This document shows, piece by piece, positions 5,746 through 41,138 of a stretch of DNA of 44,818 nt. Source of the DNA: Spirochaetota bacterium (GTDB lineage: Bacteria > Spirochaetota > Spirochaetia > DSM-27196 > SLST01); NCBI GenBank assembly GCA_048624115.1, contig JBMCTC010000001.1, positions 1-44,818 on the forward strand, written 5' to 3'. The notes under the pieces were generated by a model. The model saw nothing but the letters and a program-made list of their open reading frames with translations. It searched no databases and was not told the origin of the DNA. The position numbers and the translations under genes are program-made. The stretch's first letter is position 1. Every line of letters starts with the position of its first letter.

Positions 5746-6689
5746 AACAGTGCACTCCCTGAGACCCGCTTAGCGACTCGGTTACTTGTGAGAATCAGAA
5801 TGAGCGATATAAACGCTTGCATCAGGCCGACCGCCGCCGCGAAGTCAAATCTCCCATCGCGGAGACCCACTTTCACAACAAACGTTTGAATGATCTCGGA
5901 CCGCTCATTGTTCAACGTATTCCCGAGAAGATAGGCCTGCTCAAAGTTTGACCCGGAGACGCCACCTCCGAGGAGGTTGCCGAGACTCAAGACGAGCACG
6001 ACAACGATCGCCCCCCGAATACCCGGAAGGGTGACGTGTCGAATGCGTGCAAGGCGGCCTGCCCCGTCGATTTCGGCGGCCTCGTAAAGGTTGGGATCGA
6101 TGCCGGCTATCGCAGCGATAAAGATGATTGCCCACCATCCCATACTCTTCCAGATGTCGGTTACGACCGCGAGTGTCCAGAAGGCGTCTGGGTCGGTGAG
6201 TATGGTCAACGGGCGCTCGATAAGACCCAAGCCCAGCAGGATGTTGTTGATTGCGCCGAACTCCGTCGAGAAGAGAGCGAACGCGAGGCCCGAAACGACG
6301 ACCCACGAAATGAAGTGTGGGAAGTAGCTAACGGTCTGCAGGGTCCGTTTAAATCTGGTAGACCGGATCTCGTTGAGCGCGATTGCAAACAGGATCGGCA
6401 TCGGGAAGGCGAACACCGTCTTGAGGATGCTGATCGCCAGCGTGTTTGTGAGAATATTCGAGAAACGGAAGTCATTGACGAACTCCCTAAAGTGTTTGAG
6501 GCCTACCCACGGACTGGTGAAGAACCCCAGGAAACCGTCCAGGAAGTCGTAATCCTTAAACGCGATAATCACCCCCACCATGGGCGCGTAGCGGAAGATC
6601 AAGAGAAATACGATACCGGTGAGAGCAAAGGCGTGAAGCCATGCTTCCCGTTTGAGCTGCGTCTTGAGGCTGCGCCAGCGAGTGTGCAT
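5742..6689 (-). CDS. Carbohydrate ABC transporter permease (LplB/MalF-like)
   Basis: 315 aa, multi-TM, with an EAA-loop motif (LYEAAEIDGAGRLARIRHVTLPGIRG). Confidence 0.9.
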   Translation of the reverse strand: MHTRWRSLKTQLKREAWLHAFALTGIVFLLIFRYAPMVGVIIAFKDYDFLDGFLGFFTSPWVGLKHFREFVNDFRFSNILTNTLAISILKTVFAFPMPILFAIALNEIRSTRFKRTLQTVSYFPHFISWVVVSGLAFALFSTEFGAINNILLGLGLIERPLTILTDPDAFWTLAVVTDIWKSMGWWAIIFIAAIAGIDPNLYEAAEIDGAGRLARIRHVTLPGIRGAIVVVLVLSLGNLLGGGVSGSNFEQAYLLGNTLNNERSEIIQTFVVKVGLRDGRFDFAAAVGLMQAFISLILILTSNRVAKRVSGSALF

Positions 6690-6815
6690 GCTTCGAATCG
6701 TAGGCCGGTTTCCGAATTCGCGAAAGCGACGGATTCCACGATGGTAGTGTCGAAATCGAAGGCAGTCTCGCCATTTCCGTCACTTCCGGGTACGATCCGA
6801 GCCAGAGGCCCATGC

Positions 6816-8543
6816 ATGCTTACACAACCAGATTACGTCCCATATAGCGTCTACTCGACCTGGGGCTTTCATGATGAACTCGGAGACACCGTCGACCTTA
6901 CCGAGGAGCTGGCGCAGCGAGCGCTCGATCGGATCGAGGCTTGGAGACAGAAGCCGGGGTATCAGTTCGATGTGTTTCATATCGACTGCTACTGGTTTGA
7001 GAAATCCGAACCGTTTACGGAGTTCGATCGAACGCTCTGGCCAAATGGTCCCGACAGCGTCTTCGAGCGGGCCAAGTCGATGGGGATGAAGCTCGGACTC
7101 TGGTATCCGGTCAACGGCCAGCGAATGACCTGCAAGAGTTGGGATGACTCACGAGCGGAGGAAATGCAGCTGCCGGGGTTTAGCCTTGTGGATGGTCCGT
7201 TCGCAGATGACTTCGAGGCTGCCCTGCTTCATGCCGCAGAGGTGTGGGGTGTGCGCCACTTTAAGTTCGACTTCGCTGCCTTCGGGGCAAGCGCCGCCAA
7301 TTCCGAGCGTTCGGTGCGAGAGACGATGAGACAGAGCATCGCGAGATTCAAGCAAATGCTTCGAAAGCTTCGCGCAGCGTTCCCCGACGTCCACGTGATC
7401 ACTCACTGCGGGTTTGCTCGCACCGAACAGAGTACCGTTGCGGGCTCACCACTTGCGCTCGCTGTCGATCCTGCATGGCTCGAGGTCGCAGACGGCATGT
7501 TCCCGGGGGACCCGCACCCGATCGACATCCCTCAGACATCGCTCGTTCGCAACATCGACGTCTACTCCGACCGGCAGGTCTGGGCTCTCCACCGACACGG
7601 CTACCCGCTTCACCGGATCGAGGACAGCGCCTGCATCATCGGCGACACTAACACCTGCTGTTATCGGGGACGCGAAGGCTTCCGCCGCACGTGGCTCGCC
7701 ACATTGGCCCGGTGCAGCAGAAGAGGGTTCTTCTACGGAAACCCAGAGGTGCTGACCGACGACGATGTCGTGTTTATGAAGGATGCTCAGGACCTCTTCT
7801 TCGATGCATTCGGTCGCAACCTGAACTCGAGTTTCGTGGGAGACGGTGAGCCGGGGCAGGCTCCCTGGCACGGATACCTCACAGGAGGCGGCGATTGCGG
7901 GCTCCTCTATCTCGTAAACCCACACCAGCGACCGGTCGAGAGTCGTCTGCTACTCACAGACCTCAACGACGCTCACGTACTCTTTCACGACGGAGAGCAA
8001 CCTCCTGTCGTTCAGGTTCAACCCGACCTCCTGTGCGTGCAGTTAGGGCCGGAACAGATGACGTTGATCGGCACCGGGGCGTACGCGGCCACAACGTACG
8101 AGTTGGGAAACGCGAACGATCCGCCGCTCCCGGGCTCAATGTCGCTGCTTCCCTGCAGCTTCCGTGAGGTCGCACCCGGATCGTACGAGGCGACAATCTC
8201 ACTCGATCGGGGCCGGCGCGTCTTCGCTTCCGCTCAGACGCTCGAGCGCGAGGCATACGGCGTTGCAGAGGGGTTGCCCTACCGGTTTGGACGGCAGTTC
8301 AGCTCCGGCGAAGCCGGAAGCGACGTGCCGGCAAGCATCGCCCATGACCAACTCCAGATTAACCTTCAAAAACATGGAGAGGCCATCGAGGAGACTAGAC
8401 GAATTCCAGACGTTCCGATATGGTCGGGAATCTCGTGGGTTGCAAAGACCTTCGACGCACCGGCGGGAGACCTTGTCCTGCGAGTTACGCAGAGCCTGCC
8501 GGAGAAGAAGCGGATCCTGGTGCGAGTGTACACCTACTCGTGA
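6816..8543 (+). CDS. Putative glycoside hydrolase, GH36/clan-D-like TIM barrel (alpha-galactosidase-like)
   Basis: This is the 3' part of the 835-aa ORF 6036-8543. I take the start as the ATG at 6816 (MLTQPDYVPY..); the alternative is the ATG at 6741. Motifs: VFHIDCYWF (compare DDGWF), GMKLGLWYPV, VRHFKFDF (compare KWDMN). No signal peptide. Divergent from the ABC importer. Confidence 0.6.
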   Translation: MLTQPDYVPYSVYSTWGFHDELGDTVDLTEELAQRALDRIEAWRQKPGYQFDVFHIDCYWFEKSEPFTEFDRTLWPNGPDSVFERAKSMGMKLGLWYPVNGQRMTCKSWDDSRAEEMQLPGFSLVDGPFADDFEAALLHAAEVWGVRHFKFDFAAFGASAANSERSVRETMRQSIARFKQMLRKLRAAFPDVHVITHCGFARTEQSTVAGSPLALAVDPAWLEVADGMFPGDPHPIDIPQTSLVRNIDVYSDRQVWALHRHGYPLHRIEDSACIIGDTNTCCYRGREGFRRTWLATLARCSRRGFFYGNPEVLTDDDVVFMKDAQDLFFDAFGRNLNSSFVGDGEPGQAPWHGYLTGGGDCGLLYLVNPHQRPVESRLLLTDLNDAHVLFHDGEQPPVVQVQPDLLCVQLGPEQMTLIGTGAYAATTYELGNANDPPLPGSMSLLPCSFREVAPGSYEATISLDRGRRVFASAQTLEREAYGVAEGLPYRFGRQFSSGEAGSDVPASIAHDQLQINLQKHGEAIEETRRIPDVPIWSGISWVAKTFDAPAGDLVLRVTQSLPEKKRILVRVYTYS

Positions 8544-10346: not shown

Positions 10347-12221
10347 TTACTGCGGCATGAGATCCCAGTACTCTTGCACCGAGGCGTTTCGTTTACAAAG
10401 CTCGATGATCTTCTGACCAAGCGGATTTAGGTCCGGGGTCTCGAACTGTTCGAGTTCCTTTAGAAAGAAGTCGTAGAGTATTTTCGCGCCCTTGTCGTAT
10501 CCTTCGATCCCGACTTCCGGCTGATCGTGGACCCGCAAGAAGCCGTGGGGCATCTCCTGGCCGTTTACGCGCAGGCCGGGCAGGCTGTAGCCGAGCAGTG
10601 AACAGCGCGAATCGTCGAGTTGGCCGGGTCGGAAGCGCAAGCCACCACGGCGTGCCATCCACTCGCGGGCGAGCCACTCTCCGGTAAAACCGACCTTGTA
10701 GGCACCGATGTACTGGTTCGGGATGAGCACGTAGCGCGTTCCAGGAGTCTGCTCGATCAGCTCAAGCAGCAGGTTCGCCTGGCGGACCATTGTGCCTGTA
10801 GCGAATGGCCAGTAGCTCCCCACCCCCTCACTGGTAAGACCCTCGGCGGTGACGATGCTCGGATTTGAGTGACCGCGAGGCGCCACGAGTCGCCAGAGCC
10901 AGGCAAGCGCAGGCGGCAGCACGTGTAGCATACCGAGAATCCCGTAGTTGGGCGTCTCTCGGGTACACGGCGGGGTGCGAACACCAAAGCTCCGAACATC
11001 GACATGCACCGGTTCATTGACCGTATTCTCGATAAAGTGCCGCGGCATAATGACTCGAGGGTTGGGGCACGGCTTGCCCGGCGCATCCTGAATATGCTCC
11101 CAGAGCAGAACCGTAGAGCCGGCCTTCCCATCGATGTTGAGGAAGATGAGCGGCTCTGGAGGATTGATGCAGAGCTTCTCAAGCGAGGGCTCGGTACCAT
11201 ACTCGGTCAGGTGGTCGACACGGAGAAACCAGCCGGCCTCCGCGTCCTCAATCACAAGCCGGCGCGAGCCCTTCTGAAGACTCGGATGCGCGAGCGCCAT
11301 GTCGTCGGTGATAGGATGCAGCTCGCATGTGTCAAAGAGCTCGATAAACAGGCGGTCGCCGGTAACGGTGTTCTCACCGAGGCGAATGCGACCATCGGGC
11401 TCGCGGTGCATCGCCTGGGTCATCTCGCTCTTTCCCCCGCCGCTCGCACCCTCGTGCATGATTACGTACTCGTTGTCGTAGGGCGTGATCAGGCGCACCG
11501 CGGAGCTGTGTAGCGTTGTCCATCCTTCGCGCTCGCCAATGGTGAGCAGGATACCGTACACGCCCTTCTTCGCGCTTGGCCCCGGGTAGAGGTTGTAGCT
11601 AAAGAGCTCGTGCATTCCGGGTAGACGATTGTGAATGACGAGCTGTCGCCCCTCGAAGTGAGTATGCCGGAACGGCGGTGCGAGGTAGATAACGGCCTCA
11701 GGCGTAAAGCCGTCGGGCACCTTGTCCTTCGGGATAAACCCCTGGAGGTCTGCCAGGCCGGCAACAAAGAAACCTGCATTCTCGGGTGCAACGAGCAGCG
11801 TCGGGCATCCGGCGTTTTTGTCGCCGCTCATGAATGGAAGGACGATCAGACGGTCCTGCTCGGCAAGCCACTCGAAGGTCTCTGTTCGCGTCTTGTCGAA
11901 AGAGGTGCCGAATCGATCGGCGTAACGGCGCTTGTCCGTGGGCTGATCGTCGGCGATCACCATTGCCTCTGGATCGCGGCGTCGCATGTACGGCTCGACG
12001 TAATTTACAGCAGCCCCGTTCCTGCAGCGTTCAACGGTTGCCTCCACGACGCGTCCTTTGCCCGGAACGTCGTAGGCCACCTCGACCACGTCGGCGCCTG
12101 GATCGAAGAACGCCAGCTCGAGCAAATGCGCTCGGCTTTCAGGAATGATTATCTCGGTCTTCTCGAAAACCTTCTGCAGTTCATCTGGAACGTTGAGTAT
12201 CGATAGCTCGACTGCGCTCAT
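10347..12221 (-). CDS. Uncharacterised DUF4914-like protein with an HprK/PEPCK-type P-loop
   Basis: 624 aa, soluble. The P-loop HEGASGGGKSEMTQ matches the GxSGxGKSE signature of HPr kinase/PEPCK-like folds. The family name DUF4914 is from memory and was not searched. Confidence 0.7.
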   Translation of the reverse strand: MSAVELSILNVPDELQKVFEKTEIIIPESRAHLLELAFFDPGADVVEVAYDVPGKGRVVEATVERCRNGAAVNYVEPYMRRRDPEAMVIADDQPTDKRRYADRFGTSFDKTRTETFEWLAEQDRLIVLPFMSGDKNAGCPTLLVAPENAGFFVAGLADLQGFIPKDKVPDGFTPEAVIYLAPPFRHTHFEGRQLVIHNRLPGMHELFSYNLYPGPSAKKGVYGILLTIGEREGWTTLHSSAVRLITPYDNEYVIMHEGASGGGKSEMTQAMHREPDGRIRLGENTVTGDRLFIELFDTCELHPITDDMALAHPSLQKGSRRLVIEDAEAGWFLRVDHLTEYGTEPSLEKLCINPPEPLIFLNIDGKAGSTVLLWEHIQDAPGKPCPNPRVIMPRHFIENTVNEPVHVDVRSFGVRTPPCTRETPNYGILGMLHVLPPALAWLWRLVAPRGHSNPSIVTAEGLTSEGVGSYWPFATGTMVRQANLLLELIEQTPGTRYVLIPNQYIGAYKVGFTGEWLAREWMARRGGLRFRPGQLDDSRCSLLGYSLPGLRVNGQEMPHGFLRVHDQPEVGIEGYDKGAKILYDFFLKELEQFETPDLNPLGQKIIELCKRNASVQEYWDLMPQ

Positions 12222-18616: not shown

Positions 18617-19846
18617 ATGATCGCAGCCTCGCGCATACAAGAGCTCGCCACACAGCGGTTCGAGCAAGCGGTGGAGAATAGACGCCACCTGCACCAGAAT
18701 CCGGAACTCTCGTTTGAGGAGGAGAACACTGCGCGCTATATAGCGAGTGCACTCGAGGCCCGCGGAATCGAGAAGATAGATCGCGGCGTCGGCGGGAACG
18801 GGGTGGTTGCTACGATCACCGGAGCCGAGGAAGGACCGGCCATTGCCCTTCGGGCAGATATCGACGCGCTACCGATTCAGGAAGTCCCGGGACGAAGCTA
18901 CGGCAGCACGAACTCAGGCGTCATGCATGCGTGCGGCCACGACGGACACACGAGCTCGTTGCTGCTCTGCGCCTCGGTGTTGCATGCTGTGCAAGAAGAG
19001 CTTCCTGGCACGGTGAAGTTGATGTTCCAACCCGCCGAGGAGCGTATCCCCGGCGGGGCGCAGGCGATGATTCGCGACGGTGTGCTCGAATCGCCGCTCG
19101 TTCACGCGGTGCTCGGCCAACACGTGAACCCCGACCTCGAGGTCGGCACCGTGGGTTTTTGCCCCGGCCTCTTTATGGCGAGCGCAGACGATGTCTACAT
19201 CACGATAGAGGGAAAGGGCGCGCACGCGGCGAAGCCACACCTCGGCATCGACCCCGTCGCGGTTGCCTCGAACATCATTGTCTCGCTACAGCAAATCGTG
19301 AGCCGTAACGCCAACCCAATCGTCCCGAGCGTGCTCACCTTCGGCCGGTTTATCGCAGACGGGGCGACCAACGTCATCCCCAACACCGTCGAGATTGAGG
19401 GAACGTTTCGCACGATCGACCCCGCGTGGCGAGACGCGGCGCTCGAGCGCATCGAACGCGCCGTAAAGGCGCAAGCCGAGGCGCTCGGAGCGCGCGCGAC
19501 GGTTCGCATCGACCGTGGCTACCCACCGCTCGTAAACGACGAACCGTTGACAAGCGCCTCTCGACGGCGCGCGGTCGAGTATCTCGGCAAGGAGCACGTC
19601 GTGGATCTGCCGCCTGCAATGTGGGCGGAAGACTTTTCCTACTTCGGACTCGAACGTCCGGCATGCTTTTACAATCTCGGAGTACGCAACGAGAACCGCG
19701 GCATTATCCATCAGGTGCATACGCCGGAGTTTGACCTCGACGAGCAGGCGCTTCGCGTGGGCGGTGGGCTCATGGCCTGGCTCGCGATCGGTGCGCTCGA
19801 AGAACTCGACTCCTCTGGTCTTCGCAACCGCTCCGCCTCGAGTTGA
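18617..19846 (+). CDS. M20D-family amidohydrolase (N-acyl-amino-acid / hippurate hydrolase-like)
   Basis: RRHLHQNPELSFEE near the N-terminus and the metal-site motif MHACGHDGH. 409 aa. Confidence 0.85.
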   Translation: MIAASRIQELATQRFEQAVENRRHLHQNPELSFEEENTARYIASALEARGIEKIDRGVGGNGVVATITGAEEGPAIALRADIDALPIQEVPGRSYGSTNSGVMHACGHDGHTSSLLLCASVLHAVQEELPGTVKLMFQPAEERIPGGAQAMIRDGVLESPLVHAVLGQHVNPDLEVGTVGFCPGLFMASADDVYITIEGKGAHAAKPHLGIDPVAVASNIIVSLQQIVSRNANPIVPSVLTFGRFIADGATNVIPNTVEIEGTFRTIDPAWRDAALERIERAVKAQAEALGARATVRIDRGYPPLVNDEPLTSASRRRAVEYLGKEHVVDLPPAMWAEDFSYFGLERPACFYNLGVRNENRGIIHQVHTPEFDLDEQALRVGGGLMAWLAIGALEELDSSGLRNRSASS

Positions 19847-19880: not shown

Positions 19881-21566
19881 ATGACAGCACCTTCCGGGAC
19901 TCCCCTTATTATACAGAGCGATGCATCCCTGCTTGTGGACGTACACGATCCTGGGTTCGAAGAGGCTCGCGCCGAGCTATCTACATTTGCAGAGCTCGAG
20001 AAGAGCCCCGAGCACATGCACACCTATAGGCTCACTCCGTTGAGCCTCTGGAACGCGGCGAGTGCAGGTTTTTCCGCTGCAGATCTTCTCGAGCGACTCA
20101 ACCGGTTTGGTCGCTTCCCGGTTCCCGATAACGTCGAGTTTTTCATCACCGATACGATCTCTCGCTTTGGCAAACTCAAGCTGAGACAAACACCGCACGA
20201 GAATCAACTCTTTCTGGACGTACCCGACTCGGCCGTGCGCCAGGAGCTCATGAACAATAAGCGCGTCAGCAAACTGCTCACGCCCATTGAGATGGACGAT
20301 GCCTCGGGCTTTCTCGTAGAGCTCTACGATCGCGGAACGGTGAAGCAGGAACTCATTCACGTTGGGTACCCGGTTCAGGACGAGGCGCCGCTTCGCGAGG
20401 GAGAACCGCTTCAGATAGAGCTGCGAACGGCCATGTTGTCGGGCGCCGCCTTCGAGGTTCGGGACTACCAAAACGAAGCGGCCAAGGCATTCTACGGTAC
20501 CGGAAAGCCAGGCACGGGCTTTGGCACGGTGGTCCTGCCCTGTGGGGCCGGCAAGACGGTCGTGGGTATGAAGACGATGGAGCTCGTCGCTGCCAACACG
20601 CTGATTTTGACGACCAACGTTGCCGCAGTTCACCAGTGGCGCGACGAGCTTCTCGACAAGACCGAACTCACCGAAGAGCAAATCGGCGAGTATAGCGGCG
20701 ACCGCAAAGTCATTCGACCCGTCACAATTGCCACCTATCAGATTCTCGTATGGCGGCCGGACAAGAACGAGAACTTTCCGCACTTCTCGATCTTCAAAGA
20801 GCGACAGTGGGGCCTGATTGTCTACGATGAGGTGCATCTTCTGCCGGCACCAGTCTTTCGCGTAACTGCGGAGATTCAGGCCGTTCGACGACTCGGTCTT
20901 ACCGCAACGCTCGTGCGGGAGGACGGACGCGAGTCGGACGTCTTTAGTCTCGTGGGACCAAAACGCTACGACGTGCCCTGGAAGGAGCTCGAGCAGAAGG
21001 GCTGGATAGCCGAGGCGAACTGCTACGAGATTAGAATTGACCTGCCGGAGAGCCTCAAGCTCGACTACGCCACGGCGGACAAACGCGGCAAGTTTCGCAT
21101 CGCGAGCGAGAACCCGCGCAAGCTCGAAATCGCGAAGCAAATCATCGAGAACCACCGCGAGGACTCGATCATGGTGATTGGTCAGTATCTCGACCAGCTC
21201 TACATGCTCGCCAAGGAGCTCGACGCGCCGATCATCACCGGCAAAACGCCCAACAACGAGCGCGAGCAAATCTACGGCGCATTCCGCAGGGGAGAGGTGC
21301 AAGTCATCGTGGTAAGCAAGGTGGCCAACTTTGCGATTGACCTCCCGGACGCGTCGGTCGCGATCCAGGTAAGTGGAACTTTCGGTTCTCGTCAGGAAGA
21401 GGCACAGCGTCTCGGACGCATCTTGCGTCCCAAGGAAAAAAACTCCTATTTTTACTCGGTGATCAGTCGCTACACCACCGAAGAGACCTTCGGGGCAAAC
21501 CGGCAGAAGTTCCTTACCGAGCAGGGCTACAAGTACCACATTGAAATATGGGACGCCGATGTCTGA
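19881..21566 (+). CDS. xpb: XPB/Ssl2/ERCC3-type SF2 DNA helicase-translocase
   Basis: N-terminal DRD-like region (PLIIQSDASLLVDVHDPGFEEA), Walker A VLPCGAGKT, DEVH box IVYDEVHLLPAP, the XPB-specific RED motif GLTATLVREDGRE, and motif VI SRQEEAQRLGRILRP. ATG 19881 is the first Met after the upstream stop. Confidence 0.9.
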   Translation: MTAPSGTPLIIQSDASLLVDVHDPGFEEARAELSTFAELEKSPEHMHTYRLTPLSLWNAASAGFSAADLLERLNRFGRFPVPDNVEFFITDTISRFGKLKLRQTPHENQLFLDVPDSAVRQELMNNKRVSKLLTPIEMDDASGFLVELYDRGTVKQELIHVGYPVQDEAPLREGEPLQIELRTAMLSGAAFEVRDYQNEAAKAFYGTGKPGTGFGTVVLPCGAGKTVVGMKTMELVAANTLILTTNVAAVHQWRDELLDKTELTEEQIGEYSGDRKVIRPVTIATYQILVWRPDKNENFPHFSIFKERQWGLIVYDEVHLLPAPVFRVTAEIQAVRRLGLTATLVREDGRESDVFSLVGPKRYDVPWKELEQKGWIAEANCYEIRIDLPESLKLDYATADKRGKFRIASENPRKLEIAKQIIENHREDSIMVIGQYLDQLYMLAKELDAPIITGKTPNNEREQIYGAFRRGEVQVIVVSKVANFAIDLPDASVAIQVSGTFGSRQEEAQRLGRILRPKEKNSYFYSVISRYTTEETFGANRQKFLTEQGYKYHIEIWDADV

Positions 21567-23676
21567 CTTCAGAAGCGCGATGCTCAAGCTGCCGGATGAG
21601 GCGTTCTTCGAGCTCGTGCGAAACTACCTCGGCCCGATCAAGACCCCATTCAACAAGCACGACCTGATCGGAAAGGTCGAGTCGATGCTTCGCGGCGAGC
21701 AGACGCAGTCTCGCATCCGTGAGCTTCTTGACCGTAACGATAAAGAGGTGCTCTCTGCAATCTGGCTCCTCGGAGAGCCCGAGGCCGACGAGCTCTTCGA
21801 CTTCTTTGCGGGCCGCAGAAGTTACCTCGAGCTCCATCACCATCTTCTGAACCTCGAAGACCGGCTCCTCATCTACCGCGACGAGAACGCGCTGCGGCTC
21901 ACGCCGATCCTCAAGCCAATGCTCGAGGAAAGCGCGCTCGACGCGGCGTACCTGTTCGAGAGCCGCGCCGCAACAAGCGATGAAATCCCCGCTCCGCAGT
22001 CGTGGCTCAGCGACTCGCTCTTGGCATCGTTCCTCTCATTTTGCATAGACGAGTCCGACTTCCTTCGTGCCGACGGTCACATGCGAAAGCGGGTCTTGAA
22101 CCGGATTAGGTCGATGCTTCCGGATCTCGCTGCTCCGTCGATCCGTACGAGCGAGTACGCCGATCCCCGCGCCGCCGAACTCTACCGGGGACTCAACGCA
22201 CTCGGCCTGGTAGGATCCGAGAGCGAGACCCGCTTCCCCGCCCACAGATGGGAGGCGCTTGCGAGCGAGAGCGCCCCTGCCCGGGTGGCACTGATTGCAT
22301 CGGGCTGGGTTTCCGCCGCAGAGCGAATGCTCACAGCGGCGCAGAGCGCGACTATCGCAGCGGAGGCAAGCGCGGAGGGCAGCGTAGCGGGTGGGGCCGC
22401 GGCGAGCGCGCATGGCAGTCGCGGCTTGGATAACCGCGACGTTCGCCTTCGGGCAGAGGCAATCGAGGCGGTGTGGACGGCACTGCCACAGGAAGCCGCT
22501 ATTTCAGTTGGCAGCGTAGACAGGCTCCTTGCCAGCCTGCTCGGAGCAGACCACGGATCCGTACCCGTTATTCGTCAGGCAATGATCCTTTTTGGGATTC
22601 TCTGGCAGGCGCCGGACCACTTCGTACTGCCGGCGCCCGTCCCCACCGAGGCTCTCGCGGCAAAGCCAATCATCATCCAGCCCAACTTTGAGGTCACGCT
22701 CCCCCAAGAGGTCGCGCCGGAAGACGCGTTCTTCCTCGCGAAGCTTGCTCGGCTCTCGAAGCATGATATCTACCCGCGTTTTGAGCTTGCGAAGGAGCGT
22801 CTGGCTATGACGCTTCACGAGGGAGTCGAGCTTGACGAGGCGGTCTCGCGTCTTTCCGATATGAGTCAGGGCACGATCCCGCAGAACGTTGTTATGATCA
22901 TGAAGAGCTGGGGCTCCGAGTTCGAGAGCATGCGGCTCTATCGCGGGATCGTTCTCACGATCGAGGCGAGCCGACGCTTTATTGTCGAACAGCCGGCGGT
23001 CGCACGGTTAATCCGCAAAGAGCTCGCGTCCGGTGTCTATTTGATCGCAGAGCACCGCATTCCAGAACTGAGAAGCGCGCTTGCAGATTCGGGCGTTGAA
23101 CTGTTGCCGGAGGTAGAGCAGTTTGGTTCAGCCGAGGCGGCCACGCCGATGGAACCGAGAGCGCATCTCGACCGCTCACGTCTCACGAGCCTTGCAGCAT
23201 TGCTCTCTCAGAGCTCGCCGACAAGCAGCAACGAGACATCAGACTCATCGGTAATCGGTTCCTCATCGATCATCGGTTCGCTTCGCGATGCACTCTCCGA
23301 GGCGGGGCTCTCCTCGGAACAGAGGCAAGAGATAGCAACGCGCATCGACCGAAAGCTCATCCTTTCGTCTGAGCAGATACGCGGTGGATCGTTGCGGCAG
23401 GAGAAGAACGAGGCACGTGGAATCGATTACGGCGGGAAGGTCCGAATAATCGAACAAGCCATTCGAAGCGGCACATCGTTTCTCGACGTAGTCGAGCGAA
23501 CCGAAGACGGTTCTCCTCTGAAGTATCTCATCGAGCCGCTCGAACTGCAGAAAGAGAAGGACGAGCTCTACCTTGCCGGACTCGTCTTGCCCGATCGAAC
23601 CGAGATTAAGCTGCGCGTCCGGAAGCTCGTCCTGGTTCGACGCATTCGTGGCGGTTTGGTCAGGCGCCGCCTGTAG
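21559..23676 (+). CDS. XPB-associated large protein: p52/Tfb2-like core plus a WYL-like C-terminal domain (function unknown)
   Basis: The ATG at 21559 overlaps the xpb stop (ATGTCTGA). Residues KPIIIQPNFEVTL..FELAKERLAMTLHEGVELDEAVSRL..IPQNVVMIMKSWGSEFESMRLYRGIVLT resemble the conserved TFIIH p52/Tfb2 core by eye. A Ser/Thr-rich linker follows, then LKYLIEPLELQKEKDELYLAGLV..LRVRKLVLV. Confidence 0.75.
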   Translation: MSDFRSAMLKLPDEAFFELVRNYLGPIKTPFNKHDLIGKVESMLRGEQTQSRIRELLDRNDKEVLSAIWLLGEPEADELFDFFAGRRSYLELHHHLLNLEDRLLIYRDENALRLTPILKPMLEESALDAAYLFESRAATSDEIPAPQSWLSDSLLASFLSFCIDESDFLRADGHMRKRVLNRIRSMLPDLAAPSIRTSEYADPRAAELYRGLNALGLVGSESETRFPAHRWEALASESAPARVALIASGWVSAAERMLTAAQSATIAAEASAEGSVAGGAAASAHGSRGLDNRDVRLRAEAIEAVWTALPQEAAISVGSVDRLLASLLGADHGSVPVIRQAMILFGILWQAPDHFVLPAPVPTEALAAKPIIIQPNFEVTLPQEVAPEDAFFLAKLARLSKHDIYPRFELAKERLAMTLHEGVELDEAVSRLSDMSQGTIPQNVVMIMKSWGSEFESMRLYRGIVLTIEASRRFIVEQPAVARLIRKELASGVYLIAEHRIPELRSALADSGVELLPEVEQFGSAEAATPMEPRAHLDRSRLTSLAALLSQSSPTSSNETSDSSVIGSSSIIGSLRDALSEAGLSSEQRQEIATRIDRKLILSSEQIRGGSLRQEKNEARGIDYGGKVRIIEQAIRSGTSFLDVVERTEDGSPLKYLIEPLELQKEKDELYLAGLVLPDRTEIKLRVRKLVLVRRIRGGLVRRRL

Positions 23677-25144
23677 CAAGCGTCCGGTAAAGCTCGTACT
23701 GGGCGGCGGCCTGGGCTGAGAACATCATGTCGCCGGTTATGACCCGGCATCCGCCCGCCAGAGCGCGCCGGATCAGAGGGGTCTCGGGCGGCGTGTAGAC
23801 AATGTCGTAGACGAGCTGTGTCCCATCGAGTCGATACCACGCTGCCGGATCTCCATCGCCATGCATACCAACACTGGTAGTGTTTACAATTACCTCGATG
23901 CCTGACGTCCGAACCGCCTCAACCTGCTCTACCGCTCGGACCGAGCCACCAACCTCGCTCCGACCGAACGTCGCGATCTCCGCTGCGAGTGTCTCTGCCT
24001 TCGTATGCGTCCTGTTGTGCACCAACACCTCGGAACCCGCCTCGAGGAGCGCAAACGCAACCCCCCTTGCGGCGCCGCCTGCACCGAGCACGAGTACGCG
24101 ACTCCCCCGCAGGCGCGAACCCATCTGCTCCTCGAGCGGCGCGAGAAACCCCATCGTGTCGGTAGAAAGTCCGAGCCAACCGGAGGGGGCACGAACAACC
24201 GTGTTACATGCCCGCGCGGCTCTGACCTCAGGCGAGACCTCATCGAGGTGCTCGATCACCGCCTCTTTGTGAGGGATCGTGACGGAGAATCCAAGAATCG
24301 GCAGCAGCTCGGCGAGCGCAAAAAACTGGCTCGGCTCATCTACCAGAACGGGGATGTATGCCGCATCGATCCCATCCTCCATGAACCTACCGTTGTGATA
24401 GGCGGGGCTCTTCGAGTGAGCGATCGGATTGCCGATTACTGCGAAGAGGGGCCAGCTCGATCGCTGCTTGCCGACTTGATAAAGATCTGTGAGGGTTTGG
24501 GGCGTGACGTGCCCAGGGGCGGCCGAGGCGCCGGGAGAGGAGCAAAACGAGAGCATTGATTCGAAGTGGTAGGGAGCAAGTCGCGTCGGTGCGCCGTACG
24601 CTCCCATGCCAACGATGATCTTCTGACCCTCGTGTTCTCGCGCGACCTCGAGCAGCCGAAGGAGGTCTCCAACACCATTCGGCCGGACGGCTATCTTCGG
24701 GATACCGTCGGGTGTTCGGCAGAGGGTAGATAGCCGCTCGTTGAGGTCGAGCGGTACTCCCTCAAAATCATGCATCGACCAGATGATCCTTGTACCCTGG
24801 TCACGCGCGACCTTGATCGTGTTCTGCAGCGCATGTGAGTCGGGAAGGTCGCCCTCGAGATCGATGTAGGCTGTCCCGGCCGCGGAAGCCGTCGCAAGAA
24901 GGGAGAGGCGCCGTTCGTCGGAGTCATCGCTGCTCCCACCGTCGGTGAGTCGACGGACGGTGCAAATCGTCGCGAGCCCTGGGTGCTCGGCGCGTATCGC
25001 TTGGAGAAACTCTTCTACCTTGGCGTGTTCACGTTGATCAAGCAGATCGATCCGGAGTTCGACGCCGCCGAGATACTGCCGTTGGCGACGAACCTGGTCC
25101 AGCGCAGCCGAGACGGTTGGGGCTGTGGTGGAAAGAACAATCAC
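23660..25144 (-). CDS. aroDE: Bifunctional 3-dehydroquinate dehydratase (type I) / shikimate 5-dehydrogenase
   Basis: N-terminal AroD-like region (GGVELRIDLL). C-terminal AroE motifs FAVIGNPIAHSKSPAYHN and the NAD(P) loop VLVLGAGGAARGVAFAL. The GTG start overlaps the upstream stop (GTGA). Confidence 0.85.
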   Translation of the reverse strand: MIVLSTTAPTVSAALDQVRRQRQYLGGVELRIDLLDQREHAKVEEFLQAIRAEHPGLATICTVRRLTDGGSSDDSDERRLSLLATASAAGTAYIDLEGDLPDSHALQNTIKVARDQGTRIIWSMHDFEGVPLDLNERLSTLCRTPDGIPKIAVRPNGVGDLLRLLEVAREHEGQKIIVGMGAYGAPTRLAPYHFESMLSFCSSPGASAAPGHVTPQTLTDLYQVGKQRSSWPLFAVIGNPIAHSKSPAYHNGRFMEDGIDAAYIPVLVDEPSQFFALAELLPILGFSVTIPHKEAVIEHLDEVSPEVRAARACNTVVRAPSGWLGLSTDTMGFLAPLEEQMGSRLRGSRVLVLGAGGAARGVAFALLEAGSEVLVHNRTHTKAETLAAEIATFGRSEVGGSVRAVEQVEAVRTSGIEVIVNTTSVGMHGDGDPAAWYRLDGTQLVYDIVYTPPETPLIRRALAGGCRVITGDMMFSAQAAAQYELYRTLATGGA

Positions 25145-39542: not shown

Positions 39543-40214
39543 ATGGAGGATAAGATCCACAGACCGATGGTACTCCGGTTGGCTCGGTACCTTCGGGTAT
39601 TAGAAAAACTCAAGGGCCTTGGTTTTGTCAAAGTCTTCTCGAACAATCTCGGCGACGCGATTGGCGCTACGCCCGCGGTTGTCCGGAAGGACTTCTCGGT
39701 GATCGGCATCACGGGGAACAAGCGGGGTGGCTACGTCATTGACTCGCTGATCGAACGCCTTGTCGAGGTGCTCGGCAAGAACGAGACGGAGAAGGTTGTT
39801 GTTGTAGGCGTCGGCCGCATTGGAAGCGCCCTCATCAACTACCGTGAGTTTGTTCGAGAGGGCATTCGCGTCGTAGCGGGCTTCGACACGAATGAGTCGC
39901 TGGTCAATCGAGACCTGGCAATTCCGCTTCTCCCAATGGTGGAGTTTCCCAAGTTCGTGAGCGAGAGCAATATCGAAGTTGCCGTCCTGGCGGTGCCCGA
40001 CTCGGTGGCAACAAGCGTTTTTGAGCTGATGATTGATGCGGGCATTCGAGGCGTGCTCAACTTCACCTCGGTGGAACTGAAATGTGGTGCCGCCTGCCAC
40101 GAGCGTGGCTGCTCCGAAGAGTGCACCGTTCAAAACGTAAATATCGGCCTCGAGATCGAGAATCTCTTCTATCTCATTCGATTGAAGCGCGAAACCGAAG
40201 AGATCTCCGTATAG
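39543..40214 (+). CDS. rex: Redox-sensing transcriptional repressor Rex
   Basis: N-terminal winged helix (RLARYLRVLEKL..VFSNNLGDAIG..AVVRKDFS) and the Rossmann loop VVVVGVGRIGSAL. 223 aa. Confidence 0.9.
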   Translation: MEDKIHRPMVLRLARYLRVLEKLKGLGFVKVFSNNLGDAIGATPAVVRKDFSVIGITGNKRGGYVIDSLIERLVEVLGKNETEKVVVVGVGRIGSALINYREFVREGIRVVAGFDTNESLVNRDLAIPLLPMVEFPKFVSESNIEVAVLAVPDSVATSVFELMIDAGIRGVLNFTSVELKCGAACHERGCSEECTVQNVNIGLEIENLFYLIRLKRETEEISV

Positions 40215-41138
40215 ATGAGCACGTTGCCGCTCGATGCCGGAGAACCTGCGTTTGTCACGGAGCTGATCTATAGGCTCAAGATCAAGGACGCGATGACCTC
40301 GGCGCTCTACACCGCGACACCTGACGAGAGCCTGCGCTCGCTCCAGATCAGAATGAAAGAAGCGCAGATTACCGGCGTGCCGGTCGTTGCCGGTACAAGG
40401 ATTCTCGGGATCGTGAGCATGGACGATGTAATCCGCGCACTTGATGAAGGCTACATCGACGAGCCGGCGGGCGATCACATGAGTAAGCAGCTGATCGTGC
40501 TCGAAGACGACATGCCCCTGAGCTTTGGCATCTCCTACATGGAGAAGTACCGCTTTGGTCGCTTTCCCGTGCTGAACAAGGAAAAGGAACTCGTCGGAAT
40601 CATCACGAGTAGGGACATACTCACCACCCTTCTCATGGAGATGAATCGAGAGGTTGAACGAAGAGAGCAACTGCAATCTGAAGTTCGTACCAACGAGAGC
40701 TTCTACCGAGAGTACCGGGTACGCAAGTTTGATTTCGAGCATTCCGGCAAGGCAACCGGCGAAGTTAAGATCGAGCTCAAGCAGATGGGGCTCCCGCCGA
40801 AGTTCATTCGGCGCGTTGCCGTGGCGAGTTACGAGCTCGAGATGAATGAGGTCGTACACTCCGAGGGCGGATCGTTGCAGGCGCGGATTACGCCCGAGCA
40901 GGTAGAGATCGTTGCAAAGGACACCGGACCGGGAATTCCCGATCTCGAGAAGGCGCTTACCGAGGGCTACTCCACCGCCACGGAGTGGGTTCGCTCGCTC
41001 GGGTTTGGAGCGGGCATGGGATTGCCAAACGCTCGCCGCGCCGCCGACGAGTTTCGAATCTCGAGCGACGAGAAGGGAACCACCGTCAGATGCTTGTTTC
41101 ACATTCCGCAAACAGGGGGAACCGATGAAGGCGCATGA
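40215..41138 (+). CDS. CBS-pair domain fused to an RsbW/SpoIIAB-type GHKL serine-kinase-like domain
   Basis: Two CBS motifs (ITGVPVV..ILGIVSMDDVIRAL; FGRFPVLNKEKELVGIITSRDIL). C-terminal HATPase region IVAKDTGPGIPD..GFGAGMGLPNARR. The ATG directly abuts the rex stop (TAGATG). Confidence 0.8.
   Translation: MSTLPLDAGEPAFVTELIYRLKIKDAMTSALYTATPDESLRSLQIRMKEAQITGVPVVAGTRILGIVSMDDVIRALDEGYIDEPAGDHMSKQLIVLEDDMPLSFGISYMEKYRFGRFPVLNKEKELVGIITSRDILTTLLMEMNREVERREQLQSEVRTNESFYREYRVRKFDFEHSGKATGEVKIELKQMGLPPKFIRRVAVASYELEMNEVVHSEGGSLQARITPEQVEIVAKDTGPGIPDLEKALTEGYSTATEWVRSLGFGAGMGLPNARRAADEFRISSDEKGTTVRCLFHIPQTGGTDEGA

Follow-up and report, generated by a model that had tools for sequence, protein, structure and literature searches.

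A spirochaetal XPB helicase gene overlapping the gene for a p52-like protein: a candidate bacterial counterpart of the XPB-p52 part of TFIIH

The window analyzed here, a 44,818-bp contig from a metagenome-assembled genome of Spirochaetota, carries two overlapping genes, one for an XPB helicase/translocase and one for a p52/Tfb2-like protein that we refer to as the partner. The XPB gene occupies 19881..21566 (+), with an ATG at 19881 and a TGA at 21564-21566, and encodes 561 amino acids (aa). The partner gene occupies 21559..23676 (+), with an ATG at 21559 and a stop at 23674-23676, and encodes 705 aa. Both open reading frames (ORFs) lie where a first-pass annotation of this DNA had placed them, and the overlap that it described between the XPB stop and the partner ATG is 8 nt long, ATGTCTGA (21559..21566, +). 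The two frames are different, and the partner ATG is 5 nt ahead of the TGA, an arrangement that is compatible with translational coupling. Homologues back both start codons: the XPB relatives are 561 aa long and aligned over 100%, and the partner relatives open with MxDF(K/R)S..LLTL.D.AFFEL, as the window protein does. In GenBank the two products are MFW6211268.1, "DNA repair helicase XPB," and MFW6211269.1, "hypothetical protein."

The first of these proteins is an orthodox, full-length bacterial XPB. It matched the NCBIfam equivalog model NF045503, "DNA repair helicase XPB," with 863.5 bits against a cutoff of 610 and over model positions 1-548 of 548, and TIGR00603 (rad25) with 347.6 against a cutoff of 328.7. 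Its N-terminal domain, residues 9-133 (19905..20279, +), has the Helicase_C_3 fold (Pfam PF13625, E 9e-35, 119.9 bits). The first-pass annotation had rightly seen a domain here, and its label of "DRD-like" was imprecise, as this is the XPB/Ssl2 N-terminal domain. The superfamily 2 (SF2) motor that follows (20451..21542, +) was delimited by Pfam and by motifs in the translation, with RecA1 as ResIII (PF04851, residues 191-345, E 2.8e-17) and RecA2 as ERCC3_RAD25_C (PF16203, residues 370-554, E 6.7e-48). All of the motifs quoted earlier are indeed in the translation, namely LPCGAGKT, the DEVH box (as YDEVH), TATLVREDGRE, and the motif VI stretch GSRQEEAQRLGRILR. The best PDB matches were eukaryotic XPB/Ssl2 chains, at E 3e-84 to 7e-79, one of which spans residues 7-554 of the window protein. 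Archaeal XPB chains were weaker matches (2.5e-44), and their best stretch was the C-terminal helicase part, residues 405-542. For the N-terminal clutch-type domain, eukaryotic XPB chains were the sole matches in this sequence search. A homologue search with the XPB returned spirochaete XPBs only. From its family, the protein is predicted to be a DNA-dependent ATPase and 3'-5' translocase.

The partner was much less forthcoming as a single sequence. It gave no NCBIfam, PADLOC, or PDB match, and its match to Helicase_C_3 (PF13625) at residues 371-468 (E 5e-7, 30.2 bits) did not reach the cutoff of 34.2. In a word-indexed search 54 relatives were detected, and those whose source names the organism belong without exception to the Spirochaetota; nearly all of the 54 carry a precomputed PF27388.1 assignment, most also carry PF13625, and one carries PF03849 (Tfb2). 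Repeating that search with the alignment added two distant proteins only. An exhaustive profile search, in turn, reached 5,458 cluster representatives at E<=1e-3, of which 830 were at E<=1e-30, and the wider partner family is therefore large.

A family profile of 41 sequences (A1) linked the partner to TFIIH, transcription factor IIH. Its top match in PDB was human p52/GTF2H4 (8ebt_D), at E 3.9e-5 and over p52 residues 257-408, followed by Chaetomium Tfb2 (6trs_A) at 3.7e-4. The N-terminal domains of XPB came in at about 2.5e-3 (best 2.3e-3), with 19.8 bits versus 25.6 for p52, and yeast Tfb2 at 0.012. The profile and p52 align as IVVETNYRLYAYT / VTRESV / GITAQQII / LP..I.DQIRLWE.E..RL....GVL, and the match to p52/Tfb2 reaches 25-80 positions upstream of the domain known in p52 as the clutch (HubA) and continues beyond it as W..E...R...G(V/I)(L/V). 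The first-pass annotation had aligned a partner segment, KPIIIQPNFEVTLPQE...IPQNVVMIMKSWGSEFESMRLYRGIVLT, with p52 by eye; that segment is present at about residues 369-470, and it is the same one that the family profile recovered. Three Pfam families had also been named there as worth searching for, with divided results. Helicase_C_3 was matched by all 41 family members (best 7.8e-11), with the window protein itself below threshold; Tfb2 (PF03849) was matched by 4 of the 41, at best with 1.9e-5 and 24.2 bits against a cutoff of 34.5; and WYL (PF13280) was not matched. We conclude that the partner clutch has homologues in the p52 clutch and in the N-terminal domain of XPB, and it is probable that partner and p52 as such share descent. 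Since the Tfb2 threshold was not reached, the N terminus is different, and a WYL-like domain has been added, we call the protein p52-like and not a member of Tfb2.

An AlphaFold2 model of the partner, built on the A1 alignment, had a predicted local distance difference test (pLDDT) score of 86.9 and a predicted template modeling (pTM) score of 0.83. When this model was compared with PDB by Foldseek, ranks 1-17 were all held by chains of 289-452 residues from TFIIH entries, with E 1.6e-7 to 2.3e-4 and 327-564 aligned columns; 8ebt_D, 7o4i_2/7zs9_2, and 6trs_A were confirmed as p52/Tfb2 by profile search, and the identity of the other chains was inferred from their length. XPB chains rank after these 17 and align over 154-198 columns only; in comparison with the XPB N-terminal domains, the E-values of the p52-type chains are better by about 2,500-fold and their alignments are three times longer. 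The alignments cover essentially the whole p52 chain with the domain order preserved, and the overall fold of the partner is thus predicted to be collinear with p52. The Bax1 complexes 6p4f and 6p66 were not among the structural matches. Likewise, Pfam found no nuclease family in the partner at E<=1, as expected from the first-pass annotation, which had noticed no Bax1-like nuclease motif.

The model and the invariant columns of the alignment divide the partner into six parts. The N-terminal domain, residues 1-135 (21559..21963, +), consists of a helical bundle and then a winged-helix-like unit. Nowhere is the protein better conserved than here, with invariant G25, T29, P30, and K33 (GPIKTPFNKH), and PF27388 presumably corresponds to this domain. 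By eye it is absent from the inspected partners of other phyla, and blastp against six of them gave no match, and we regard it as spirochaete-specific. Several family members also gave weak Pfam matches to winged helix-turn-helix (wHTH) domains of the MarR/IclR/Crp type. A variable middle region, residues 136-365 (21964..22653, +), is made of helical and winged-helix-like units and is collinear in Foldseek with the N-terminal half of p52, in p52/Tfb2 alignments of 519-564 columns versus chains of 390-452 residues; the profile match to Chaetomium Tfb2 starts about 80 positions ahead of the clutch. The clutch domain, residues 371-468 (22669..22962, +), has the Helicase_C_3 fold and is delimited by PF13625 and by the profile match to p52. 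A beta-beta-alpha unit follows at residues ~469-515 (22963..23103, +), with strands at 485-490 and 493-496 and a helix at 498-510 in the model. Its position matches that of the p52 C-terminal domain that binds p8, to which it may be equivalent; no match to that domain or to p8 was found by sequence. A linker and helices then lead to the last domain.

That last domain, residues ~613-700 (23395..23658, +), is WYL-like and was found by fold. WYL had figured in the first-pass annotation only as a family to check, and the predicted structure now suggests that it is present. A separate model of residues 530-705 had a pLDDT of 83, and when it was run through Foldseek, the best match to this C-terminal region was PafBC (E 1.4e-4, with PafBC alignments of 137-145 columns). 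CapW (7tb5) matched with a root mean square deviation (rmsd) of 1.7 Å over 71 columns and BrxR with 2.2 Å over 70; the C-domain of DriD with single-stranded DNA (7tzv) and the Cas13d accessory protein WYL1 (6oaw) were also found, and then Sm/Tudor barrels. Overall, the WYL matches ranged from E 1.4e-4 to 4e-2, with a probability of about 1.0 and an rmsd of 1.7-2.3 Å over 64-71 columns, and the DriD and CapW WYL entries among them show bound single-stranded DNA. A near-invariant motif, EA(R/K)G(L/I)DYxGK, stands ahead of the domain, and by eye the domain itself follows the WYL pattern LxVxER..DG.P.R.LxEP.EL...G.ELxL.G..LP.R..xxLxVRKLxLVRR. A profile of the C-terminal region (A2) found nothing significant in PDB by sequence, and the likeness to WYL comes from fold comparison alone. 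On the basis of the model, we consider it highly likely that the C-terminal ~90 residues have the WYL fold. For partners of other phyla we do not claim such a domain. The C termini of the Tsukamurella, Actinomyces, Deinococcus, and Paenibacillus partners fit the pattern by eye; hhalign gave E 0.006-0.012 for two from Deinococcus and nothing for the others, and Pfam WYL was found in none of the other-phylum partners scanned, among which the Actinomyces protein was not included.

Conserved adjacency of the two genes, which the first-pass annotation had singled out as a point to check, was borne out within the Spirochaetota, with linkage of the two holding in other phyla as well. A scan with one genome per species gave 432 partner relatives, and the best 79 loci, all spirochaetal where a lineage is named, were analyzed, with 77 of them informative for adjacency. 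XPB lies directly upstream of the partner and on the same strand in 60 of the 77, with a gap of -1 to 108 nt; the overlapping arrangement (a tblastn gap of -1) is kept in eight of the closest relatives, and the other adjacent loci have 0-108 nt. Two further loci have XPB 1.9 kb or 5.4 kb from the partner. The median identity to the window proteins was 69% for XPB and 31% for the partner. The recurrent gene order is PIN-PhoH, M20 amidohydrolase, XPB, partner, a convergent aroD-aroE fusion, and GGDEF-EAL, with aroD-aroE adjoining the partner in 44 of the 79 loci and the amidohydrolase gene immediately preceding XPB in 12. In 15 of the informative loci (L012, L018, L024, L028, L030, L031, L033, L034, L036, L045, L049, L050, L051, L055, and L057), the partner is present without XPB in the available upstream sequence. 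These are more distant relatives, with 27-30% identity to the window partner, often still beside aroD-aroE, and the place of XPB is taken by an acyltransferase, FGGY kinase, or phosphoglucomutase gene.

A tblastn search with XPB against 72,556 plasmid and chromid records extended the linkage to four further phyla. It returned twelve full-length bacterial XPB genes, eleven of which were inspected, and in every one of the eleven a gene for a Helicase_C_3 (clutch) protein, 620-1,090 aa long, lies within 5 kb. These loci come from the Bacillota, Deinococcota, Actinomycetota, and Cyanobacteriota, and gene order and orientation vary among them. In Paenibacillus, XPB is followed by the partner with a 14-nt overlap, and an amidohydrolase gene lies upstream as in the window. 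Three species of Deinococcus have XPB, an ORF of 99-115 aa, and then the partner overlapping that ORF. The partner is immediately upstream of XPB in Arthrobacter, Acaryochloris, and Gloeocapsopsis, divergent from it in Actinomyces, 3.5-3.8 kb upstream in Tsukamurella and Nonomuraea, and 4.7 kb downstream on the opposite strand in Nocardia. The actinobacterial XPBs are 50-52% identical to the window XPB. The partners are named "helicase-associated domain-containing protein" or "hypothetical protein" by NCBI; the N-terminal regions of different phyla cannot be aligned, and blastp detects the clutch only. A linkage that persists through changes of order and orientation in five phyla is the usual mark of a functional association. 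As for haloarchaeal XPB-like plasmid genes, no partner was found beside the one inspected.

Two groups of partner-like proteins differ at the C terminus. The cyanobacterial partners (L084:4129-5997 and L089:3101-4975; 622-624 aa) are encoded immediately upstream of XPB on plasmids, one of them typed as conjugative, with transposase, integrase, and toxin-antitoxin genes nearby; a stretch with a p8-like look, ...ARLIECNDPMLATLIANDSRTKKF...HLVVPTDGETKFRNALRKLGY, comes right before their end, and by eye the WYL-like domain is missing. Two distant proteins, P0056 from a member of the Myxococcales (L080:8001-10178) and P0055 (L082:7327-9546), are 725-739 aa long and have the clutch domain at their center; by eye, their C termini carry again the motif of the small ORFs described below, in place of the WYL-like domain.

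Several neighbors of the pair in the window deserve mention. Upstream, an M20-family amidohydrolase gene (18617..19846, +; Pfam Peptidase_M20, 2e-42, and M20_dimer) ends 34 nt before XPB, may be co-transcribed with it, and is a possible member of the module. With the amidohydrolase whose gene (L086:3602-4786) directly precedes XPB in Paenibacillus cellulosilyticus, this protein shares 42.6% identity over 376 aa (E 1e-99), and M20, XPB, and partner may represent either a conserved three-gene neighborhood or a block that was transferred together. Downstream, the partner gene and the convergent aroD-aroE fusion gene (minus strand, 23660-25144) share 17 nt at their 3' ends (23660-23676), which leaves no space for a terminator between the two genes, and none was seen at this junction in a promoter and terminator scan of 18.4-24 kb. 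That scan found no promoter-like site, and terminator-like sites were below shuffled expectation. The remainder of the window encodes ordinary metabolism, such as peptide ABC transporters and an [FeFe]-hydrogenase. The window contains no other TFIIH-like gene (p34, p44, p62, XPD, or kinase module), no p8-like gene beside the partner, and no nuclease gene that we could find. Apparently unrelated to the pair are an 835-aa ORF (6036-8543, +) and a 503-aa ORF (39600-41111, -), neither of which matched Pfam at E<=1e-5, and a DUF4914 protein (10347-12221, -), which matched over its full length with 1,050 bits.

Small ORFs of 72-115 aa were observed immediately upstream of the partner gene in five loci, overlapping its start except in L082, where the ORF ends 3 nt before. 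They are located at L085:6738-7067, L087:6762-7061, and L088:6737-7084 in Deinococcus, at L080:7744-8004 in the Myxococcales, and at L082:7105-7323. The five proteins are mutually homologous. A hidden Markov model of them also picked out part of the partner-like ORF of Nonomuraea (E 1.4e-4) and, in the Myxococcales partner, the C-terminal end (E 2.3e-3), and in hhalign the family shows a weak similarity to the post-clutch unit of the spirochaetes (E 3.6e-4, probability 37%). The window lacks an ORF of this kind. The eukaryotic protein p8/Tfb5 shares its fold with the p52 C-terminal domain, and the small ORFs could be a bacterial analogue of it. Comparison with a p8 sequence identical to PDB 28jm_G gave an hhalign E of 0.23, and a PDB search with the family returned neither p8 nor Tfb5; with a comparison that is not significant, a bacterial p8 stays a hypothesis.

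The closest known system is the XPB-p52(-p8) part of TFIIH (GTF2H4/p52 and Tfb2; 6NMI, 8EBT, 7O4I, and 6TRS). As in TFIIH, the window XPB combines the N-terminal domain with an SF2 core, and the partner has a homologous clutch within a chain predicted to be collinear with p52. In contrast to the 462-aa p52, the 705-aa partner has a spirochaete-specific N-terminal domain and an extra WYL-like domain; no other TFIIH subunit is encoded in the window, and the Pfam Tfb2 threshold is not reached. Archaeal XPB-Bax1 (6P4F and 6P66), in which the partner modulates XPB, is similar in that the XPB motor is encoded beside a dedicated partner. However, Bax1 is a nuclease that binds the thumb and HD2 regions of XPB (PMC7672443), and no nuclease domain was found in the window partner. 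With WYL sensors (9FND, 6SJ9, 7TZV, 8TP8, 9C5G, 7TB5, 7QFZ, and 6OAW) the partner is predicted to share a helix and a five-strand Sm-like fold, but unlike in PafBC, DriD, CapW, BrxR, and WYL1, the W-Y-L triad is replaced, and the domain is set on a p52-like scaffold rather than in a wHTH...WCX transcription factor. Rv0861c of Mycobacterium tuberculosis belongs to the same XPB family as the window XPB. When assayed alone, the M. tuberculosis protein was active only in large molar excess, and according to the same study bacteria had yielded no homologues of p52 or p44, nor was any partner known (PMC3353954). A need for large molar excess would fit a missing cofactor. In contrast to that work, a partner family is now identified, which in Mycobacteriales lies 3.5-4.7 kb from XPB and does not overlap it. 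A 2026 review still calls the function of bacterial and archaeal XPB "more elusive" (PMC13024598). The shared Helicase_C_3 domain is already recognized by databases; the pairing with a partner appears undescribed in the literature that we found, in which there was no account of a bacterial p52-like XPB partner, subscription journals being mostly outside its coverage.

We believe, with moderate confidence, that the pair is a two-subunit DNA translocase matching the XPB-p52 part of TFIIH, with a partner that would anchor and regulate XPB and may sense single-stranded DNA. That the two proteins associate physically is very probable. In human TFIIH the p52 clutch is bound by the N-terminal domain of XPB, the two making up a pseudo-symmetric dimer (PMC6422496), and p52 stimulates XPB (PMC3353954). 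By analogy, the N-terminal domain of the window XPB would be the docking site for the partner clutch, the two pairing through their beta-sheets. This pairing would hold the RecA2 lobe of XPB and stimulate or gate its ATPase and double-strand translocase activity. The WYL-like domain might bind single-stranded DNA or another nucleic acid signal, in the manner of the DriD and CapW WYL domains, and so direct the motor to, or switch it on at, DNA already partly opened or damaged. The winged-helix units of the partner may contact duplex DNA or another protein. The motor would open or remodel DNA around a lesion or a stalled complex. Processing or repair of chromosomal DNA damage is the most likely cellular role, and a role in immunity is less likely.

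A number of observations weigh against this interpretation. The p52 homology seen in sequence is limited to the clutch and some flanking sequence. The Pfam Tfb2 cutoff was reached by no member, the window partner gave no Tfb2 match at E<=1, and the matches of the other members fall only within model positions 285-355 of 358, the best of them at 288-355. From PDB, a profile built on the pre-clutch region (A4) recovered only spurious TALE-repeat matches and no p52, and this search thus gave no counterpart of the parts of p52 to which p34 and p62 bind; a post-clutch profile (A5) returned neither the p52 C-terminal domain nor p8. The structural match to p52/Tfb2 that the first-pass annotation had looked to was found at Foldseek ranks 1-17, but with TM-scores of only 0.17-0.38; such values are expected for a flexible multidomain chain, and they leave the N-terminal likeness to p52 suggestive only. 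The WYL assignment is based on predicted fold only, and Pfam WYL matched neither the window partner nor its 40 aligned relatives at E<=1. The contact between XPB and the partner is deduced from homology and gene linkage only, and the repair role is a guess from what these families do elsewhere. Finally, the 15 of 77 spirochaete loci that have no XPB in the available upstream sequence, together with P0055 and P0056, which are not encoded near XPB, suggest that the partner may also work without an adjacent XPB, or without any. Given the location of P0055 and P0056 and their small-ORF-like C termini, the clutch scaffold may also serve partners other than XPB.

Several other explanations of the pair were considered. 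The partner may have been built independently of p52, by placing a duplicate of XPB's N-terminal domain in a winged-helix/WYL scaffold, and could then bind XPB in a similar manner. The 19.8 bits of the XPB N-terminal domain against the partner profile, next to 25.6 for p52, would suit such an origin, as would the classification of the clutch by Pfam as Helicase_C_3, with Tfb2 matches below threshold and in the clutch only, a pre-clutch region that has no sequence likeness to p52, and N-terminal regions that cannot be aligned across phyla. We nevertheless think it unlikely, as Foldseek favored p52 about 2,500-fold, over the whole chain and in the same domain order, and the profile match to p52/Tfb2 runs beyond the clutch on both sides. 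More doubtful still is that the partner is a wHTH-WYL regulator of the PafBC/DriD type, recruiting XPB at promoters or regulating a damage regulon that includes XPB. Those regulators are half its size, its best matches over the whole chain are p52, and the Pfam scan found neither a WCX domain nor a canonical wHTH-WYL arrangement at the N terminus; the close and frequently overlapping coupling to XPB also suggests subunits in a 1:1 ratio and not a regulator with its target. A regulator would account for the C-terminal half, with its best matches to PafBC (137-145 columns), DriD, CapW, and BrxR, for the weak MarR/IclR/Crp-type matches, and for the persistence of the partner without adjacent XPB in some genomes.

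WYL domains are also common in regulators of defense, such as BrxR and CapW, and the pair might be an anti-phage or anti-plasmid module with a helicase effector and a WYL-type sensor. The plasmid location of the cyanobacterial pairs, near transposases, an integrase, and toxin-antitoxin genes, points in that direction, and in PADLOC-DB 2.0 the XPB partially matches the helicase model PbeA. Those matches, however, cover only the generic helicase C-terminal region, and the partner has no match in that database. As the first-pass annotation had argued from housekeeping flanks, the spirochaete genes do not look like an island: they belong to a syntenic chromosomal core across many lineages, and the pair and its flanks have equal guanine-plus-cytosine contents. 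The median XPB identity of 69% is unlike that of fast-evolving defense genes, no relatives were found on viral contigs, and no nuclease or other effector domain was found. We therefore hold a defense function to be quite improbable. Least probable of all is that the adjacency is incidental and the function of the partner unrelated to XPB. The 15 loci without XPB and the distance of P0055 and P0056 from XPB would be explained in this way, but the linkage recurs in five phyla with differing gene orders and orientations, and the partner has the very domain that mediates XPB binding in TFIIH. Overall, the p52 reading given by the first-pass annotation is largely supported.

As a two-subunit translocase, the pair would be of interest in several respects. 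The partner is a candidate for the missing cofactor in in vitro work on bacterial XPB, and from its WYL-like domain single-stranded DNA can be proposed as a concrete trigger. Experiments are feasible, as the pair has culturable carriers in Deinococcus, Paenibacillus, Arthrobacter, and other actinobacteria. The eukaryote-only match of the XPB N-terminal domain in the PDB sequence search bears on the origin of the XPB lobe of TFIIH. More speculatively, and with less confidence than in the pair itself, bacteria may hold an ancient counterpart of that whole lobe, made of XPB, a p52-like scaffold with a WYL-type sensor of single-stranded DNA, and, in Deinococcota, Myxococcota, and at least one other lineage, a p8-like small protein. 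If this were true, the XPB-p52-p8 motor module would predate the eukaryotes or would have been exchanged between domains as a unit, and bacterial XPB would be a damage-gated double-strand DNA translocase.

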